Shown here: positions 4,239 to 38,419 of the stretch, one piece after another
How the letters are laid out: every line of letters begins with the position of its first letter
How positions within the stretch are numbered: position 1 is the stretch's first letter
Sequence record: NC_019704.1
Direction: 5' to 3' (one strand)
From: Enterobacteria phage mEp237
Length of the DNA: 44,375 bases
The notes under the pieces: generated by a model
The model's database searches: none
The model's input: the letters and a program-made list of their open reading frames with translations, nothing else
What the model was told of the DNA's origin: nothing
Program-made: the position numbers and the translations under genes

Positions 4239-5562
4239 TCTTCCGCATATTGCCAGTATGGCCTTTAATGAGCCGCTGATGCTTGAACCCGCCTATGCGC
4301 GGGTTTTCTTTTGCGCGCTGGCTGGCCAGTTGGGCATCACCCGGCTGACAGATACCGTCTCTGGCATCACGCTTGATGCCGGACAAATAGCCGAACCGCT
4401 GGCGCTGTTTGGTGAGGATGATGACATGGATCCCCGTCCATCACGCAGCTATCAGGTGGCAAATGGTATCGCGGTCTTGCCGGTTTCCGGCACGCTGGTC
4501 AGTAAAACCCGTGCGCTTCAGCCTTATTCCGGCATGACGGGTTACAACGGGATCATTGCTCGCCTGCAGCAGGCAATCAGTGACCCCGGCGTTGACGGCA
4601 TTCTTCTGGATATGGATACGCCGGGTGGAATGGTGTCCGGGGCGTTTGACTGCGCCGACATTATAGCCCGTATGCGCGATATCAAACCCATCTGGGCGCT
4701 GGCCAATGACATGAACTGCAGTGCAGGGCAGCTTATAGCCAGTTCGGCATCGCGACGGCTGGTCACACAAACGGCCAGAACCGGCTCCATTGGGGTCATG
4801 ATGGCGCACAGCAACTATGGCGCTGCGCTCAAAACTAACGGCGTTGAGGTCACGCTGATTTACAGCGGCGATCGCAAGGTCGACGGCAACCCTTACGAAA
4901 AGCTTCCGAAAGATGTGCGTGCTGATTTCCAGACGCGTATCGATGCCACTCGTCAGATGTTTGCCGAAAAGGTTTCCGCTTATACCGGCATGTCTGTTCA
5001 GGACGTGCTGGACACCGAAGCGGCAGTATTCTCCGGCCAGGAGTCTTTGGATAACGGACTGGCGGATGAACTTGTTAACAATACCGATGCGCTCGGCGTG
5101 ATGCGCGAAGCACTCGACAGACGCAAAAAAACAACCCTTGGAGGAACTATGCCATCACCTTCTGCTTCAGCTGTGACCACTAAGCCAGTTGACCAGGCAG
5201 CAACTCAGACAACTGCCTCAGCTGAACAGGTCACTACCGTTGACACGACCATTGCTTCCGTAGCGGCCCCTGTAGATGTCAGTGCGCAGGTTACTGCAGC
5301 AGTAGCTGCAGAGAATAGCCGCATCATGGGCATCCTGAACTGCGATGAGGCTAAAGGGCGTGAGTCACAGGCGCGAGCACTGGCCGAAACGCCGGGTATG
5401 ACGGTAGAGAGCGCACAGCGCATTCTGGCTGCTGCACCGCAAAGTGCCCAGGCGCGTACCGATACGGCGCTGGATCGTTTGATGGAAACAGCACCCGGTG
5501 CACTCCCAGCAGGTAGCGCATCTTCTGATGCCGCTGACGATTTGTTAAACACCCCCGTTTAA
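4219..5562 (+). CDS. C: Head maturation protease / scaffold (lambda gpC-Nu3 homolog, S49 family)
   Basis: 447 aa; lambda C-like N-terminus ([27 protein letters not shown]) and conserved C-terminal scaffold segment (AAENSRIMGILNC...). Confidence 0.9.
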   Translation: MAHELRNLPHIASMAFNEPLMLEPAYARVFFCALAGQLGITRLTDTVSGITLDAGQIAEPLALFGEDDDMDPRPSRSYQVANGIAVLPVSGTLVSKTRALQPYSGMTGYNGIIARLQQAISDPGVDGILLDMDTPGGMVSGAFDCADIIARMRDIKPIWALANDMNCSAGQLIASSASRRLVTQTARTGSIGVMMAHSNYGAALKTNGVEVTLIYSGDRKVDGNPYEKLPKDVRADFQTRIDATRQMFAEKVSAYTGMSVQDVLDTEAAVFSGQESLDNGLADELVNNTDALGVMREALDRRKKTTLGGTMPSPSASAVTTKPVDQAATQTTASAEQVTTVDTTIASVAAPVDVSAQVTAAVAAENSRIMGILNCDEAKGRESQARALAETPGMTVESAQRILAAAPQSAQARTDTALDRLMETAPGALPAGSASSDAADDLLNTPV

Positions 5563-20091: not shown

Positions 20092-20107
20092 ATTGCCTGG
20101 AGAAAAT

Positions 20108-21511
20108 ATGCTTTATAACACCGGCACCATCGCCATTAATGGAAATACCGCCACCGGGACGGGTACAAACTGGACGGCACCGGCCAGCCAGGTCCGCGCT
20201 GGCCAGACGATTATCGTGATGTCTAACCCGGTGCAGCTGTTTCAGATTTCATCCGTGAACAGCGCCACGTCTTTGACGGTTACGCCAGTTGCTTCCCCGG
20301 CGCTGAGCGGCCAGAAGTATGGAATCCTTGTGTCAGACAATATCTCAGTCGACGGCCTGGCGCAGGCCATGTCTCAGCTCATCAAAGAGTATGACGAGAA
20401 TATCGGCGCATGGGAGACGTTCGCCACAACCTCAGCCAACCAGAACATTACCGTTACGATCAATGGCACCAGTTTATCAATCCCGGCTCTTGGGAAATTA
20501 CTGCAGAAGGGGGGCAACGGAGCTTTGCCGGTTAATCAAGGTGGTACCGGCGCAACGAATGCCGCAGACGCTCGCACAAACCTCGGTTTAGGCACATTCG
20601 TTACCCAGGAAGATCAGAGCATCGTCTATGGCCCGTCGCTGGATCATGCGCTTGTCGTACGAAAAGACGAATGGGGCGTCGTTGTTTCGGATAATGGTAA
20701 TCCGGTACCACTCGGAACCCGTTATGGCGGAACGGGGGCAAAAACACCTTTTGATGCAGCAACAAATCTGCAAACCATTAGATCCCTGACATATAGATTT
20801 GGCCCAGGAATGGACCCTACGTCAATATCATTTAAAAACACATCAGCATTTATAGTAGGACAGCAGGGCTATGGTCCTATCGGCGCTTTTCTGGATATCA
20901 CATCTTTCGATAATTCTGCAAGGATGCAGCTCTACGGGTGCTATGACTCACAAATGTTCCCGGGTAAAAATGCACTTGCCTACGCAACGTATAACCCAAA
21001 CGACCGTACCTGGTACCCAATTGCATTTGTAAGGGACACATCGAATACAACTGTCGATTCGAACGGTTTCATTAAATCAGCATCTCCAATAGTCAACGTT
21101 TATGGTGATGGGCGATACGAAACTAACGATGAATCAGAAGGGGTAAGAGTCACACGTCTGGATGTGGGGCAATACTACATTGAGGGATGTCAGGCGCTCA
21201 ATTCTGACGCTGCATGGGGCGGTATTGACGGAGGTTTTGAGATTCCCACTGACAGGAATAAGCAACCGCTGATATGGCTGGATTACGAGGTTAACGCCGA
21301 CGGCTCTGTGCTGGTAAAAACCTATCACCGCGAGCATCCTTCAGCGCCAGCATTTGCCAGGAATGAGCGCGCTGGATTGGCAGATGGCGAGCCGGTTGAC
21401 ATCCCGGCTGATCAGTTCGTCAGCGTTCGTGTAGAAATGCCAGCGAGTAGCATCTGGAATCAGAAACAGAAACAAACGGAAGAGGCTTTAAAGCAGGAAC
21501 AGGGGTCTTAA
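20108..21511 (+). CDS. Putative side tail fibre protein
   Basis: ATG at 20108 with GGAG 5 nt upstream (track start 20093 is a TTG); Gly/Thr/Asn-rich N-terminal region typical of tail fibres; sits after J. Confidence 0.7.
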   Translation: MLYNTGTIAINGNTATGTGTNWTAPASQVRAGQTIIVMSNPVQLFQISSVNSATSLTVTPVASPALSGQKYGILVSDNISVDGLAQAMSQLIKEYDENIGAWETFATTSANQNITVTINGTSLSIPALGKLLQKGGNGALPVNQGGTGATNAADARTNLGLGTFVTQEDQSIVYGPSLDHALVVRKDEWGVVVSDNGNPVPLGTRYGGTGAKTPFDAATNLQTIRSLTYRFGPGMDPTSISFKNTSAFIVGQQGYGPIGAFLDITSFDNSARMQLYGCYDSQMFPGKNALAYATYNPNDRTWYPIAFVRDTSNTTVDSNGFIKSASPIVNVYGDGRYETNDESEGVRVTRLDVGQYYIEGCQALNSDAAWGGIDGGFEIPTDRNKQPLIWLDYEVNADGSVLVKTYHREHPSAPAFARNERAGLADGEPVDIPADQFVSVRVEMPASSIWNQKQKQTEEALKQEQGS

Positions 21512-21515
21512 AAAA

Positions 21516-21552
21516 AACCGCCGTCCATTTTGTGTAAGAATGAGCGGCGGTT
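21516..21552 (-). terminator. Terminator-like hairpin downstream of the minus-strand DinI-like gene
   Basis: Stem AACCGCCG / CGGCGGTT with a long loop; on the minus strand it is followed by a T-run (plus-strand A8 at 21508-21515). Confidence 0.5.
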
Positions 21553-21606
21553 GATTGCTCAGTGTTCATGCCCGAGCAAACGCCGGGAATATTACCCGAA
21601 CAAGAT

Positions 21607-21873
21607 TTATAGGCCAACCTGGCGAACAGTCGGGAACTCTGAAACCAACCACATATCGGACTCTTCAAACATTTCCTCCAGCATGCGGTTCAGTTTTTCC
21701 CGATCGCTTTTGCTGGCATCGCTGTTTAAGCCGTTCGCCTGCATCGGCTTAACCTTCACTTCTGCATCCGGAAAGATCCGGTGCACTCGCTTTGTTAACT
21801 CATTCAGAATTATTTCTCTGGCACCTGTTAATCCTTCAACATTCCGTTTGTCGTACACCAACTCAACGAACAT
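21607..21873 (-). CDS. dinI: DinI-family protein (MsgA-like)
   Basis: Start MFVELVYDKRN with GGAGG upstream; resembles the remembered DinI-family MsgA sequence (KRVHRIFPDA); LexA box upstream. Confidence 0.8.
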   Translation of the reverse strand: MFVELVYDKRNVEGLTGAREIILNELTKRVHRIFPDAEVKVKPMQANGLNSDASKSDREKLNRMLEEMFEESDMWLVSEFPTVRQVGL

Positions 21874-21911
21874 ACCGCCTCCAAAGCAACAATGATTTTG
21901 CACGCAATTTA

Positions 21912-21930
21912 TACTGTTTATTTATACAGT
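21912..21930. promoter_or_regulatory. LexA (SOS) box upstream of the DinI-like gene
   Basis: TACTGTTTATTTATACAGT: perfect CTGT-N8-ACAG core (21914-21929), about 40 nt upstream of the start codon. Confidence 0.75.
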
Positions 21931-22125
21931 GTCAACGGTTGGGCACGTAGCTTTTTAAGGAAGGTTTTTGGGGCATGTATGGGGCATAAATGCCAGTTTT
22001 GGGGCATGGTTGGGACATTTTAACTCATATGAACTTAACCGAATTTCATATGGAGGCGTCTTATAATGCACTGATTAACCTAAAGAAAACACATGCTCTT
22101 GGGCGTTCTTTAGTGATTTTAAAAA

Positions 22126-22230
22126 TTACCGCGTCACGCAGTTAAAGTGACGGGCATACTCTTCAAGGCTGGTGATCCCCAACCGCACCCATTTAGGATG
22201 CGACCATTGCGGCAGACCGATGTAAATCAT
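22126..22230 (-). pseudogene. 5' fragment of a yecE-like (DUF72) host gene: 34 codons then stop
   Basis: Minus-strand translation [34 protein letters not shown] resembles a DUF72/YecE N-terminus (from memory) and ends prematurely. Confidence 0.55.
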
Positions 22231-22463
22231 AACGCGTGAAGGATCTCTTCCACGCTACGCACACGGGCGATGCGCGGGTAGATATGATTAATGCTGTTAT
22301 TGTGTTGCTCGGCGCTGGCGGCACTACAGGCGTCTTCGGCAATCACCAGATTAAAGCCAAGTTCCCAGGCATTGCGGGCGGTGGATTCAACACCGATATT
22401 GGTCGAGATCCCACATAACACAATTGTATCGATACCTCGGCGGCGTAACCGCACCTCGACCAT
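22227..22463 (-). pseudogene. 3' fragment of an isochorismatase-family hydrolase gene (yecD-like)
   Basis: 78-aa ORF with isochorismatase C-terminal signature ([28 protein letters not shown]...VIAEDACSA); no N-terminal half; reading frame broken just upstream. Confidence 0.65.
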
Positions 22464-22654
22464 ATTGCAGGATTTTACCGTTGGGTAATTTCATCCATCC
22501 ATCACCACTGGCAAAAAAAGCCATATCCGGTATCTGATTTTCCCCTGTTCCCACATCCCGTTTTGCCGCTTCTCCCAAACCAACCTTTCAAATATTTTTC
22601 TGAATCAGGTGATATTTCGCCTCTTCTCCTGTTTTTACAACAGGAGAAGCACTC

Positions 22655-23203
22655 ATGATTTACGGTTATGCCCGAGTATCAACAAACCACCAGGACACTG
22701 AATTGCAACTAACGGCGCTCAAGTCAGCTGGTTGTGAGAAAATTTTTGAAGAGCATGCCAGCGGGAGGAAATCGAATCGGCCGGTTCTAAAACGGCTGAT
22801 CGCCACTATGCAGCCGGGGGATGAACTGGTGGTCTGGAAGCTGGACAGGATAGGCCGCAACGTTCTGCATGCGCTGTTGATGTTCCAGCAGTTACAGGAA
22901 AAGGGTATCAACTTCCGCAGTATTACCGATGGCGTGGATCTCAAAACAGCCAGCGGCCGCTATAACTTTCGTAACATCCTTTCCGCAGCACAATATGAAT
23001 CTGATCTTAATAGCGAACGTACCTTAGCAGGGCTGGCCGTAGCCAGGGCAAAAGGGCGAGTTGGTGGTCGCAGGCCTAAGTTCACGGATGAGCAATGGCG
23101 GGAAATGGGGGAGCGGATGGCAACCGGTGAATCACGACAAAGCGTATCAAAAACGTATGGAGTAGGGCTCTCAACTCTGTATAAAAAGTTTCCAGCTAGC
23201 TGA
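22655..23203 (+). CDS. Serine recombinase, DNA invertase (Hin/Gin/Pin family)
   Basis: 182 aa; N-terminal YARVSTNHQ catalytic Ser motif, VVWKLDRIGRN, C-terminal HTH (GLSTLYKK); GGAG RBS. Confidence 0.92.
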   Translation: MIYGYARVSTNHQDTELQLTALKSAGCEKIFEEHASGRKSNRPVLKRLIATMQPGDELVVWKLDRIGRNVLHALLMFQQLQEKGINFRSITDGVDLKTASGRYNFRNILSAAQYESDLNSERTLAGLAVARAKGRVGGRRPKFTDEQWREMGERMATGESRQSVSKTYGVGLSTLYKKFPAS

Positions 23204-32153: not shown

Positions 32154-32546
32154 TTACTCAGAATCACCCTTAATCCGCCGCCCCATATACTTGGCGTACA
32201 GTTCATCGAGTTCCTTCAGGCGCAGTGATACCGCCTTAAGAACTCCACTCTGATCCTCTTCGGGGAGTTGACGGAAAAAACGTAAAAGCTCTTGCTCATT
32301 ACTTTTTAATCCATCATTGGGCCCTATATCCTGCCCCAAAACCCAGGCTAAATTCACACCAAGCGCATCAGCTAGCTTAAGTGCGGAGTTTTTTCCAATA
32401 GTTCCCCTTACAAACCAGTTGTTAACCGACTGGGATGTTACGCCACAAATTCTGGCCAGATCTGCTTTTGAGAGATGTTTACTATTCGTGATCTCATTGA
32501 GTCGTCTGACCTGTGGGTTATCTGATTCGTGTGTATTTTTTCTCAT
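32154..32546 (-). CDS. DicA/RacR-like HTH repressor paralog (no peptidase domain)
   Basis: N-terminal XRE HTH (LSKADLARICGVTSQSVNNWF) and C-terminal LPEEDQ...LRLKELDELYAKYM segment shared with the adjacent paralog; start taken at internal ATG. Confidence 0.75.
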   Translation of the reverse strand: MRKNTHESDNPQVRRLNEITNSKHLSKADLARICGVTSQSVNNWFVRGTIGKNSALKLADALGVNLAWVLGQDIGPNDGLKSNEQELLRFFRQLPEEDQSGVLKAVSLRLKELDELYAKYMGRRIKGDSE

Positions 32547-32565
32547 GTACAAGAGTATCACTTAG

Positions 32566-37147: not shown

Positions 37148-37167
37148 TACTGTATAAAAACACAGTA
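37148..37167. promoter_or_regulatory. LexA (SOS) box upstream of the second DinI-like gene
   Basis: TACTGTATAAAAACACAGTA: perfect CTGT-N8-ACAG (37150-37165), about 20 nt upstream of the start codon. Confidence 0.78.
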
Positions 37168-37185: not shown

Positions 37186-37419
37186 ATGAAAGTTGAATTA
37201 ACCATTGATCGCATGAAAGAACTTCCTAAAGGCGCAGTACCAGCACTGGAGAAAGAACTGCTTAAGCGCCTGAATGATCACTATGACAATTGCAGGCTCA
37301 CAATCCGCCGTGCCGGGGCCGATGGGTTAAGTGTTTTTGGTGGTGACAAGGACGATAAAAAGAAAATTGAATCAATCCTCCAGGATACCTGGGAAAGCGC
37401 TGACGACTGGTTTTATTAG
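37186..37419 (+). CDS. dinI: DinI-family protein
   Basis: 77 aa from MKVELTIDR; matches remembered E. coli DinI pattern including C-terminal ESILQDTWESADDWF; G-rich RBS. Confidence 0.88.
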   Translation: MKVELTIDRMKELPKGAVPALEKELLKRLNDHYDNCRLTIRRAGADGLSVFGGDKDDKKKIESILQDTWESADDWFY

Positions 37420-37536: not shown

Positions 37537-37785
37537 GTGAGTGATTCAGCTTTGCAAACGTCAGAAGACAACTGGTATGACATTGTAAGAAGGTCTGACG
37601 GCTGCGTGGTGTTTAGCTTTCCTTCATCGGGCAGGCATCTAATTTATCGCGTCAATGGCATGGTTTCTATGCGGCCTTTGCTGGATGATGAAGAGGTCTT
37701 TACTCCTAATGGTTTTATGCAATTTATCCGCCGTCTCGGCTACCGGGTAACACCACCTTCTGATAATATGAAATCAACGGTCTGA
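37537..37785 (+). CDS. Hypothetical protein (GTG start), downstream of the LexA-controlled dinI
   Basis: 82-aa ORF with AAGGGAG RBS 9 nt upstream of GTG. Confidence 0.5.
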   Translation: MSDSALQTSEDNWYDIVRRSDGCVVFSFPSSGRHLIYRVNGMVSMRPLLDDEEVFTPNGFMQFIRRLGYRVTPPSDNMKSTV

Positions 37786-37819: not shown

Positions 37820-38419
37820 ATGGCGCACGAACTACAACTCATTAAGCAGTCCTCAGGAATTCTGATCCCCGCTACGCCGGAGACCAGCGATATTCTGCAA
37901 TCAAAAATCAAACTTGGTGCCGTATTGGTAGCCGAATTTCGTCAGGTGAGGAATCCAGCATTCCATCGCCGTTTCTTTGCGCTCCTGAATCTCGGGTTTG
38001 AATACTGGGAACCCACCGGTGGGGCGATTTCTTCCAATGAACGTAAATTGGTGACCGGGTACGCTAAATTCCTCGCGGCATTTGGTGGAAACGAAGGCGC
38101 ACTGCTGGATGCTGCCGAGCAGTATCTGGACCGTATCGCCGATAAGCGCGCCGGTAGTATCAGCATCTGCAAATCCTATGACGCATATCGTGCATGGGTG
38201 ATCATCGAGTCTGGCCACTACGACGCCATACAGCTTCCCGACGGCACCCTTCGCAAACACCCCCGCAGCATTGCCTTTGCCAACATGGACGAAACCGAGT
38301 TCCAGCAGCTGTACAAAGCCGCGCTCGATGTTCTGTGGCGCTGGGTATTGTCCCGGGCATTCAAGGACCAGCGTGAAGCGGAAAACGCCGCATCGCAGCT
38401 CATGAGCTTTGCGGGGTGA
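37820..38419 (+). CDS. Hypothetical nin-region protein
   Basis: 199-aa ORF with GGAGAGA RBS; family not determined. Confidence 0.6.
   Translation: MAHELQLIKQSSGILIPATPETSDILQSKIKLGAVLVAEFRQVRNPAFHRRFFALLNLGFEYWEPTGGAISSNERKLVTGYAKFLAAFGGNEGALLDAAEQYLDRIADKRAGSISICKSYDAYRAWVIIESGHYDAIQLPDGTLRKHPRSIAFANMDETEFQQLYKAALDVLWRWVLSRAFKDQREAENAASQLMSFAG

Follow-up and report, generated by a model that had tools for sequence, protein, structure and literature searches.

The DNA analysed here (the window) comprises 44,375 nucleotides of Enterobacteria phage mEp237 (NC_019704.1). A DinI-family gene of the dinL type was found on the minus strand of its b-region, together with a predicted promoter, LexA box and terminator. 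A second DinI-family gene with a LexA box of its own lies in the nin region. The features of both loci and of their surroundings are collected in Table 1.

Table 1. Positions of the features described in the text (numbering of the window)
Feature	Position	Strand	Remarks
Side tail-fibre gene, convergent with dinL	20093..21511	+	Phage_tail_C_2 domain; context
gix-like palindrome	20571..20596		CTCGCACAAACC-TC-GGTTTAGGCACA, core TC
Intrinsic terminator of dinL (predicted)	21510..21552	-	U8 preceded by stem 21552..21516, its arms at 21516-21529 and 21539-21552
dinL-type DinI-family coding sequence	21607..21873	-	88 aa; ATG 21873..21871, stop 21609..21607
dinL codons 80-88, C-terminal tail	21610..21636	-	FPTVRQVGL
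Shine-Dalgarno sequence GGAGG	21878..21882	-	4 nt before ATG; direct reading
Sigma-70 promoter of dinL (predicted)	21906..21935	-	promoter scan 10/12 match and direct reading
LexA (SOS) box of dinL (predicted)	21912..21931		20-mer CACTGTATAAATAAACAGTA in gene orientation; core 21914..21929
Pseudo-site, 13 nt upstream of dinL -35	21949..21974		AGCTTTTTAAGG-AA-GGTTTTTGGGGC, core AA
Four copies of TGGGGCAT / TGGGACAT	21966-22018		ATGCCCCA on the dinL strand; spacing 11/20/11 nt
pix-like site, 60 nt upstream of pin	22570..22595		TTCTCCCAAACC-AA-CCTTTCAAATAT, core AA
Perfect 11-bp inverted repeat	22623-22649		CTTCTCCTGTT-N5-AACAGGAGAAG
Tandem CI-type HTH proteins, 155 and 135 aa	32566..33033 and 32154..32561	-	C-terminal halves alike
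LexA box of nin-region paralogue (predicted)	37148..37167		TACTGTATAAAAACACAGTA
nin-region DinI paralogue	37186..37419	+	77 aa; heads induction operon; Pfam DinI E=3.8e-26
ORF positioned like the Gifsy antirepressor gene (gfoA/gftA)	37537..37785	+	82 aa, GTG start; phrog_340
DUF1367 / irsA homologue, third operon gene	37820..38419	+	Pfam DUF1367 E=2.5e-91

Coding sequence and C-terminal tail of dinL

The open reading frame listing places the minus-strand frame at 21607..21903, beginning with a GTG. This start at 21903, which would yield a product of 98 amino acids, was rejected, as it is devoid of a Shine-Dalgarno sequence and the homologues begin at the ATG. The ATG at 21873 was taken as the real start of dinL because GGAGG lies 4 nt upstream of it and all homologues start with MFVELVYDK.

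It was considered whether the true gene could be the antisense frame on the plus strand at 21530..21895 (121 aa), which corresponds to the hypothetical protein PHI80_26 of phi80 and is open both in the window and in phi80. This frame is open, however, in just 13 of 150 distinct homologue coding sequences. It has neither a promoter nor a Shine-Dalgarno sequence, while the minus-strand frame displays a strong Pfam match. The antisense frame was rejected, its chance of being the real gene being negligible.

The nine-residue tail at the end of the product is found neither in phi80 DinL nor in E. coli DinI. It is encoded by 91 of 166 homologue genes, and two length classes were observed, with 91 genes of 88 amino acids and 64 genes of 79. 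The nucleotide diversity of the tail at codon positions 1, 2 and 3 was 0.034, 0.031 and 0.334, and the body of the gene showed the same signature (0.044, 0.018 and 0.222). This third-position-biased diversity indicates translation of the tail and purifying selection acting on it. That the tail is an artefact of a lost stop codon was rejected on account of its frequency among the homologues and of the same bias. Judged from these genes, the 79-aa and 88-aa forms of DinL are two natural length classes, both common in nature. The 79-aa homologues occur in many species of Enterobacteriaceae, with varied downstream contexts.

Promoter, LexA box and terminator

The -35 hexamer of the predicted promoter is a perfect TTGACA (21935..21930) that abuts the LexA box, the region reading TTGACA-CTGTATAAATAAACAG-TATAAATT in gene orientation. 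Two -10 candidates lie within 21913..21906, namely TATAAA, with a spacer of 16 nt, and TAAATT, with a spacer of 18 nt, which is the one that scored 10/12 in the scan. The predicted LexA box occupies the spacer between the -35 and -10 elements. An operator that fills the promoter spacer is the classic SOS arrangement.

The sequence TACTGTTTATTTATACAGT sits at 21912..21930 and contains the core CTGT-N8-ACAG with a spacer made up entirely of A and T. The quality of the box was measured as the mismatch count to the consensus. The initial annotation had called this LexA box perfect, which is accurate for the core but not for the whole 20-mer, since the latter agrees with TACTGTATATATATACAGTA, the consensus, in 17 of its 20 positions. 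In the 44-kb window CTGT-N8-ACAG was found twice (0.41 expected), and the 20-mer consensus with up to three mismatches was also found twice, against 0.00 in 100 shuffles. Both matches are located exactly upstream of the only two DinI-family ORFs of the window (21607..21873 and 37186..37419). As predicted for an SOS-regulon gene, dinL has a consensus-matching box over its promoter.

When the 20-mer CACTGTATAAATAAACAGTA was compared with the operator of the host dinI gene, ACCTGTATAAATAACCAGTA (E. coli K-12, locus L169, ~4508-4527), 17 of 20 positions were identical, including the whole spacer. The two operators are near-identical although the proteins share only about 35% of their residues.

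A terminator belonging to the gene had also been claimed. A hairpin followed by U8 is indeed predicted, but it lies at 21510..21552 and so outside the interval 21607-21930 to which the claim referred. The U8 corresponds to an A-run at 21510..21517 on the plus strand and reaches into the stop codon of the tail-fibre gene that is convergent with dinL. A search for known RNA families gave no match at gathering score in the window; within 21400..22700 the lone sub-threshold match was to CssrB, on the dinL terminator.

Conservation of the operator among homologues

In order to evaluate the operator across the family, 160 homologue loci were used, 80 of them from bacterial contigs with one genome per species and 80 from IMG/VR, and the pattern CTG-N10-CAG was scored within upstream regions of 150 nt. 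The pattern was present in 127 of 133 distinct upstream regions (95%), compared with 5.2% of control windows taken from the same loci (n=2,311). The boxes comprised 57 different 16-mers in three spacing classes. The retention of the box in so many regions with such a number of variants indicates that the operator is maintained while its sequence and surroundings turn over. A predicted LexA-type operator is, by this survey, a near-universal trait of the MsgA/DinL subfamily.

Family membership, fold and RecA-contact surface

The product of dinL matched the Pfam DinI profile (PF06183) with E=5.6e-23 and 81.5 bits (cut-off 24.2) over profile positions 3-63 of 63, and phrog_189, 'RecA filament binding protein DinI', with E=1e-21. 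With phmmer, the E. coli DinI structure (PDB 1GHH) was matched at E=2.8e-7. The AF2 model of the product (pLDDT 83; elements E2-8, H18-33, E38-44, E48-51 and H55-71) displays the alpha/beta fold of DinI, with a three-stranded sheet and two helices, and its best PDB matches were 1GHH and 7YWA (probability 1.00, TM 0.70-0.76). The latter entry represents DinI on the RecA filament.

Within the family, the protein belongs to the MsgA/DinL subfamily, as evidenced by its MFVELVYDKRN start, the F-E-E-x-D-M-W motif and high identity to proteins so named. It is 82-95% identical to 120 homologues among the matches listed, several of which are named 'virulence protein MsgA'. Membership of the DinI family is solid, and the DinI/MsgA-like gene of the initial annotation is upheld by the profile search, the fold matches and the naming in the sources.

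The initial annotation had taken dinL to be the second, diverged one of two LexA-controlled DinI paralogues in the phage. This is confirmed, the other paralogue being the nin-region gene of Table 1, whose product is 30% identical to that of dinL. The comparison of both with host DinI, which had been suggested at the same time, gave 46% identity for the nin copy. For the b-region copy it gave 37% over 67 aligned residues and 33% over the full alignment, with fewer RecA contacts kept. Against the NCBIfam model of DinI equivalogs (NF007893, cut-off 111 bits), the dinL product scored 41.5 bits and the nin copy 91.4. As both scores fall below the cut-off, the two phage proteins are paralogues, not equivalogs, of host DinI. 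DinL may nevertheless be a candidate for a functional equivalent of host DinI.

E. coli DinI contacts RecA through a hydrophobic pocket (L13, L21, W71, W77 and F78) and an acidic patch (E24, E69 and D76) (PMC9926225). In the b-region copy three of these eight residues are identical (E24, E69 and W77), three are conservatively replaced (L21I, W71F and F78L) and two are changed (L13G and D76M). The nin copy retains seven of the eight, plus E69D. The change of D76 to M is close to invariant across the MsgA/DinL subfamily, and the nine-residue tail begins straight behind the residues making up the RecA F203 pocket.

These differences, together with the selection on the tail and the lower score with the equivalog model, could mean that DinL binds RecA otherwise or has another partner, so that the targets of the two paralogues do not overlap. 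On the other hand, W77, the acidic helix at the C-terminus and the fold as a whole are kept in alignment and model, the gene is predicted to be regulated as host dinI is, with the operator likeness given above, and no data point to another partner. A diverged specificity of this kind is considered rather unlikely. The suggestion of the initial annotation that two DinI copies might act at two points or with two specificities is in need of reframing; a difference in specificity is possible and would be compatible with the diverged contact residues of the b-region copy.

The nin-region paralogue and its operon

The nin paralogue is preceded, on direct reading, by a terminator-like hairpin with a T-run, and its product is 66% identical to the DinI homologues that Gifsy-1 and Gifsy-2 encode. 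In the Gifsy prophages a LexA box is followed by a dinI homologue, a small GUG-initiated antirepressor gene and irsA (Lemire, Figueroa-Bossi & Bossi 2011; PMC3121763). The operon triggers induction there because the repressors are not cleaved (PMC3121763). The window resembles this order throughout, with terminator, LexA box, dinI gene, a small ORF with GTG start and a DUF1367/irsA gene. The product of the last gene is 86% identical to Gifsy-2 STM1020, encoded at the position of the irsA homologue. The small ORF differs in that it showed no similarity to Gifsy-2 GftA, while sharing 42% identity with its counterpart in Citrobacter phage Chris1. Its position makes it a candidate antirepressor, perhaps one of a different specificity class. 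From the gene order and similarities, the nin paralogue is assigned to the head of a Gifsy-type, LexA-controlled dinI-antirepressor-irsA induction operon, a module separate from dinL.

A domain search detected no Peptidase_S24 domain in the two CI-like HTH proteins, which are encoded as tandem paralogues. Repressor candidates devoid of a self-cleavage domain would fit an induction driven by an antirepressor.

Both types of paralogue, each with a LexA box, occur together in Gifsy-2 and in FSL SP-016, so that two LexA-boxed DinI paralogues in one phage cannot be regarded as a novelty. The msgA-type copies of these two have a truncated or different C-terminus, and that of Chris1 is a fragment without a box.

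Relation to phi80 and other known systems

The dinL gene and its LexA site are already known and annotated in phi80, and the same layout is present in phiKO2. The window is 100% nucleotide-identical to phi80 (Lula; JX871397 / NC_021190) from 21638 to 22100, a stretch that spans codons 1-79, the Shine-Dalgarno sequence, the promoter, the LexA box and 170 bp upstream. In phi80 the gene (PHI80_27) is annotated as 'dinL, DinI family protein; msgA; virulence protein (macrophage survival gene)', with 'predicted LexA binding site' given for the same 16 bp. It likewise lies between the tail-fibre gene and pin.

The phi80 protein is identical over residues 1-79 and ends after Glu79 (...WLVSE), like E. 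coli DinI. Homology ends exactly at the phi80 stop codon, while the ORF of the window continues for the nine codons of the tail. The difference is a recombination joint and not a point mutation, because the phi80 sequence past its stop codon is unrelated. This mosaic joint (window 21607-21640, phi80 locus L001 3990-4000) leads from the 79-aa to the 88-aa class. Downstream of it, the terminator and tail-fibre gene of the window resemble a Fraca/HK140/SaltyDalty-like lineage and not phi80. The allele of the window is, by this comparison, a recombinant with a promoter and body of the phi80 type and with its tail, terminator and tail-fibre gene from the other lineage. A 14-nt similarity between 21637..21650 and 22572..22585 was considered as the recombination site behind the joint. 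It was not supported, since these 3.9 kb abound in repeat families of equal quality and a degenerate invertase-site pattern is at chance level across the window.

Public assemblies contain the identical 88-aa protein in 46 blocks. In five of the six places listed its neighbourhood is ompW-yciC-yciB-yciA-yciI, which we take to be the region of the phi80 attachment site, and in the sixth it adjoins biotin-synthesis genes. One of them (L172) is identical to the window from -800 to +400.

In two further loci, from Citrobacter youngae (L015) and Kluyvera cryocrescens (L016), residues 1-79 of DinL are 100% identical to phi80. With tblastn each of them was seen to carry a second DinI homologue, the upstream region of which resembles the operator region of phiKO2 gp22/gp23 (…CACAGTATAAATACTGTATA…CCAGTA), indicating that multiple msgA/DinI-type copies per genome are common.

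In phiKO2 the DinI-like gp22, which shares 59% amino-acid identity with the dinL product, is also convergent with the J/tail-fibre genes, has an annotated LexA site in its promoter and shares a terminator, described as 'putative bidirectional', that is situated where the dinL terminator is. It differs in that the UmuD-like gene gp23, which is divergent from it and has no counterpart in the window, shares the LexA site, and in that the prophage is a linear plasmid. In the passage of PMC7556043 that deals with gp22, its regulation by LexA is stated as shown, citing Casjens et al. 2004. The same arrangement is reported for a Serratia phage (PMC7556043).

Over the matched residues 1-63/65, DinL shares 84% identity with the group made up of Salmonella MsgA and the msgA-like genes found in FSL SP-016 and at the attR end of Gifsy-2. 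The two prophage genes have a LexA box upstream, as dinL does. The Gifsy-2 copy differs in being truncated at the prophage end and in its box, which lies 15 nt from the ATG, compared with 38 in the window. Salmonella MsgA is said to be a 'macrophage survival gene'; the virulence phenotype was reportedly described for the chromosomal gene and not for a phage copy. For the chromosomal msgA, a LexA box and a 3.4-fold induction with nalidixic acid are reported (PMC8072944).

E. coli DinI (b1061), which is SOS-regulated, shares the fold of the dinL product and is of equal length up to '...W-x-V-S-E'. The phage-borne protein differs from it at L13, D76, W71, F78 and L21 and by the extra tail.

The cassette and its surroundings

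As expected of a moron, dinL has a promoter and terminator of its own, is oriented convergently to the tail-fibre gene and is present independently of its flanks. The latter vary among phi80, the window and six further loci (L170-L175), with no change in the cassette from -90 to +145.

Around the cassette, a gix-like palindrome was noted at the junction of the constant and variable parts of the tail-fibre gene. The pix-like site upstream of pin is continued by part of an alternative C-terminal exon of the tail-fibre gene, which lies on the minus strand, and a pseudo-site adjoins the dinL promoter. The degenerate invertase-site pattern as such occurs at chance level in the whole window (38 matches, 35 expected).

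In two prophages, L173 and L174, the dinL coding sequence is identical and divergence from the window starts 90 nt upstream of the ATG. The junction was read in L174 (5885-5925) alone, L173 being known by the shared divergence point. In L174 621 bp are missing, and the joint (...ATATTTGAAAGG-TT-CCTTAAAAAGCT...) falls on the 2-bp cores of the pseudo-site and the pix-like site. This is what a deletion of the serine-invertase type between directly oriented sites would leave. From its sequence, the region in which dinL lies looks like a fossil of a Pin-invertible tail-fibre segment.

In such a setting dinL could be a decaying passenger, a functionless relic in a degenerating invertible segment. 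It sits among pseudogene fragments, according to the phi80 annotation, with degenerate invertase sites on both sides, and the truncation of the Gifsy-2 copy points the same way. Nevertheless, the ORF, promoter, Shine-Dalgarno sequence and terminator are all intact, codon position 3 is 5 to 12 times as diverse as positions 1 and 2, the operator is found in 95% of homologues despite sequence turnover, and the cassette was left untouched by the neighbouring 621-bp deletion. A relic is disfavoured as very improbable.

Proposed role of dinL

The findings are probably best explained, taken as a whole, by a LexA-operated moron cassette that makes a RecA-filament-tuning protein of the DinI fold. It would be a unit of ~430 bp (promoter, operator, gene and terminator) carried by a phi80/HK225-like lambdoid phage in its b-region, with the side tail-fibre gene on one side and the pin invertase gene on the other. 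As long as the phage is lysogenic, LexA of the host would bind the box in the -35/-10 spacer and block RNA polymerase. Upon DNA damage, active RecA would bring about the self-cleavage of LexA, and the dinL promoter would fire. The resulting short mRNA would be translated from its strong GGAGG site and end at the hairpin and U8, the terminator presumably keeping antisense transcription out of the late tail operon. The 88-aa product, as a member of the MsgA/DinL subfamily, would most probably occupy the groove of an activated RecA filament in the way known for E. coli DinI (PMC9926225). From this place it would lend the filament stability and compete with other groove binders such as UmuD, LexA and CI-type repressors, so that the strength or duration of the SOS signal is tuned.

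This account builds on the ORF, the family and fold of its product, the anatomy of promoter, operator and terminator and the family-wide conservation of the operator, all established here from sequence. LexA control or damage induction is taken from the literature on relatives, namely phiKO2 gp22 (PMC7556043), Salmonella msgA and the Gifsy dinI genes (PMC8072944 and PMC3121763). From these we infer that LexA binds at the dinL site, that the MsgA/DinL subfamily binds RecA and that phage or host benefits. The changes of L13 to G and D76 to M, the merely conservative residues W71F, F78L and L21I, the score of 41.5 bits against a cut-off of 111 and the position of the tail by the F203 pocket speak against the account.

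Non-polar deletions of the dinI homologues carried by Gifsy-1 and by Gifsy-3 did not significantly affect induction, the data not being shown (PMC3121763). The phenotype of phage DinI proteins is therefore elusive. This result would suit a moron selected for host fitness, that is, a lysogenic conversion gene that helps the lysogen to survive genotoxic or oxidative stress, and not for control of the phage's own induction. The naming of close homologues as 'virulence protein MsgA', the autonomous cassette at the prophage end beside host genes and the spread of the 79-aa homologues among Enterobacteriaceae would be in line with such selection, while the virulence role of MsgA itself comes from annotation and older work. 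A host-fitness role is possible, though held with less than even confidence. It involves the same molecular mechanism as the RecA-filament-tuning cassette and hence is not exclusive of it.

A bolder proposal is that the MsgA/DinL subfamily, especially the tailed 88-aa form with D76 changed to M, is a functionally distinct modulator of RecA*, and that the two paralogues have separate jobs. If true, DinL might block the RecA-stimulated cleavage of CI-type repressors of rivals, or of UmuD, while sparing LexA. A phage induced by an antirepressor would then keep its own trigger and silence competing prophages. This is a speculative and improbable possibility.

On the whole, the initial observation is confirmed and its interpretation partly supported. 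The dinL locus is real but ordinary, the work having re-identified a DinI-like moron annotated as SOS-regulated (phi80 dinL, phiKO2 gp22, the msgA family) and a known induction operon of the Gifsy type. What is added is the near-universal operator (95%, 57 boxes), the 79-aa and 88-aa classes with a selected tail, and the diverged RecA-contact surface. These three give a concrete handle on the role of phage DinI homologues, which has been called elusive (PMC3121763).

Further features upstream of dinL

The four ATGCCCCA units (21969..22018) lie 100-145 nt upstream of the dinL ATG, inside the stretch deleted in L174. They are kept in the phi80-type loci L015, L016 and L096, and a diverged version is found upstream of msgA in FSL SP-016. 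Of 149 homologue loci, 134 lack the units, which gave no Rfam match.

The perfect inverted repeat of Table 1 ends 5 nt before the ATG of pin (22655). In phi80 this repeat bears the annotation IR3, and it could serve pin as an operator or as a translational hairpin.
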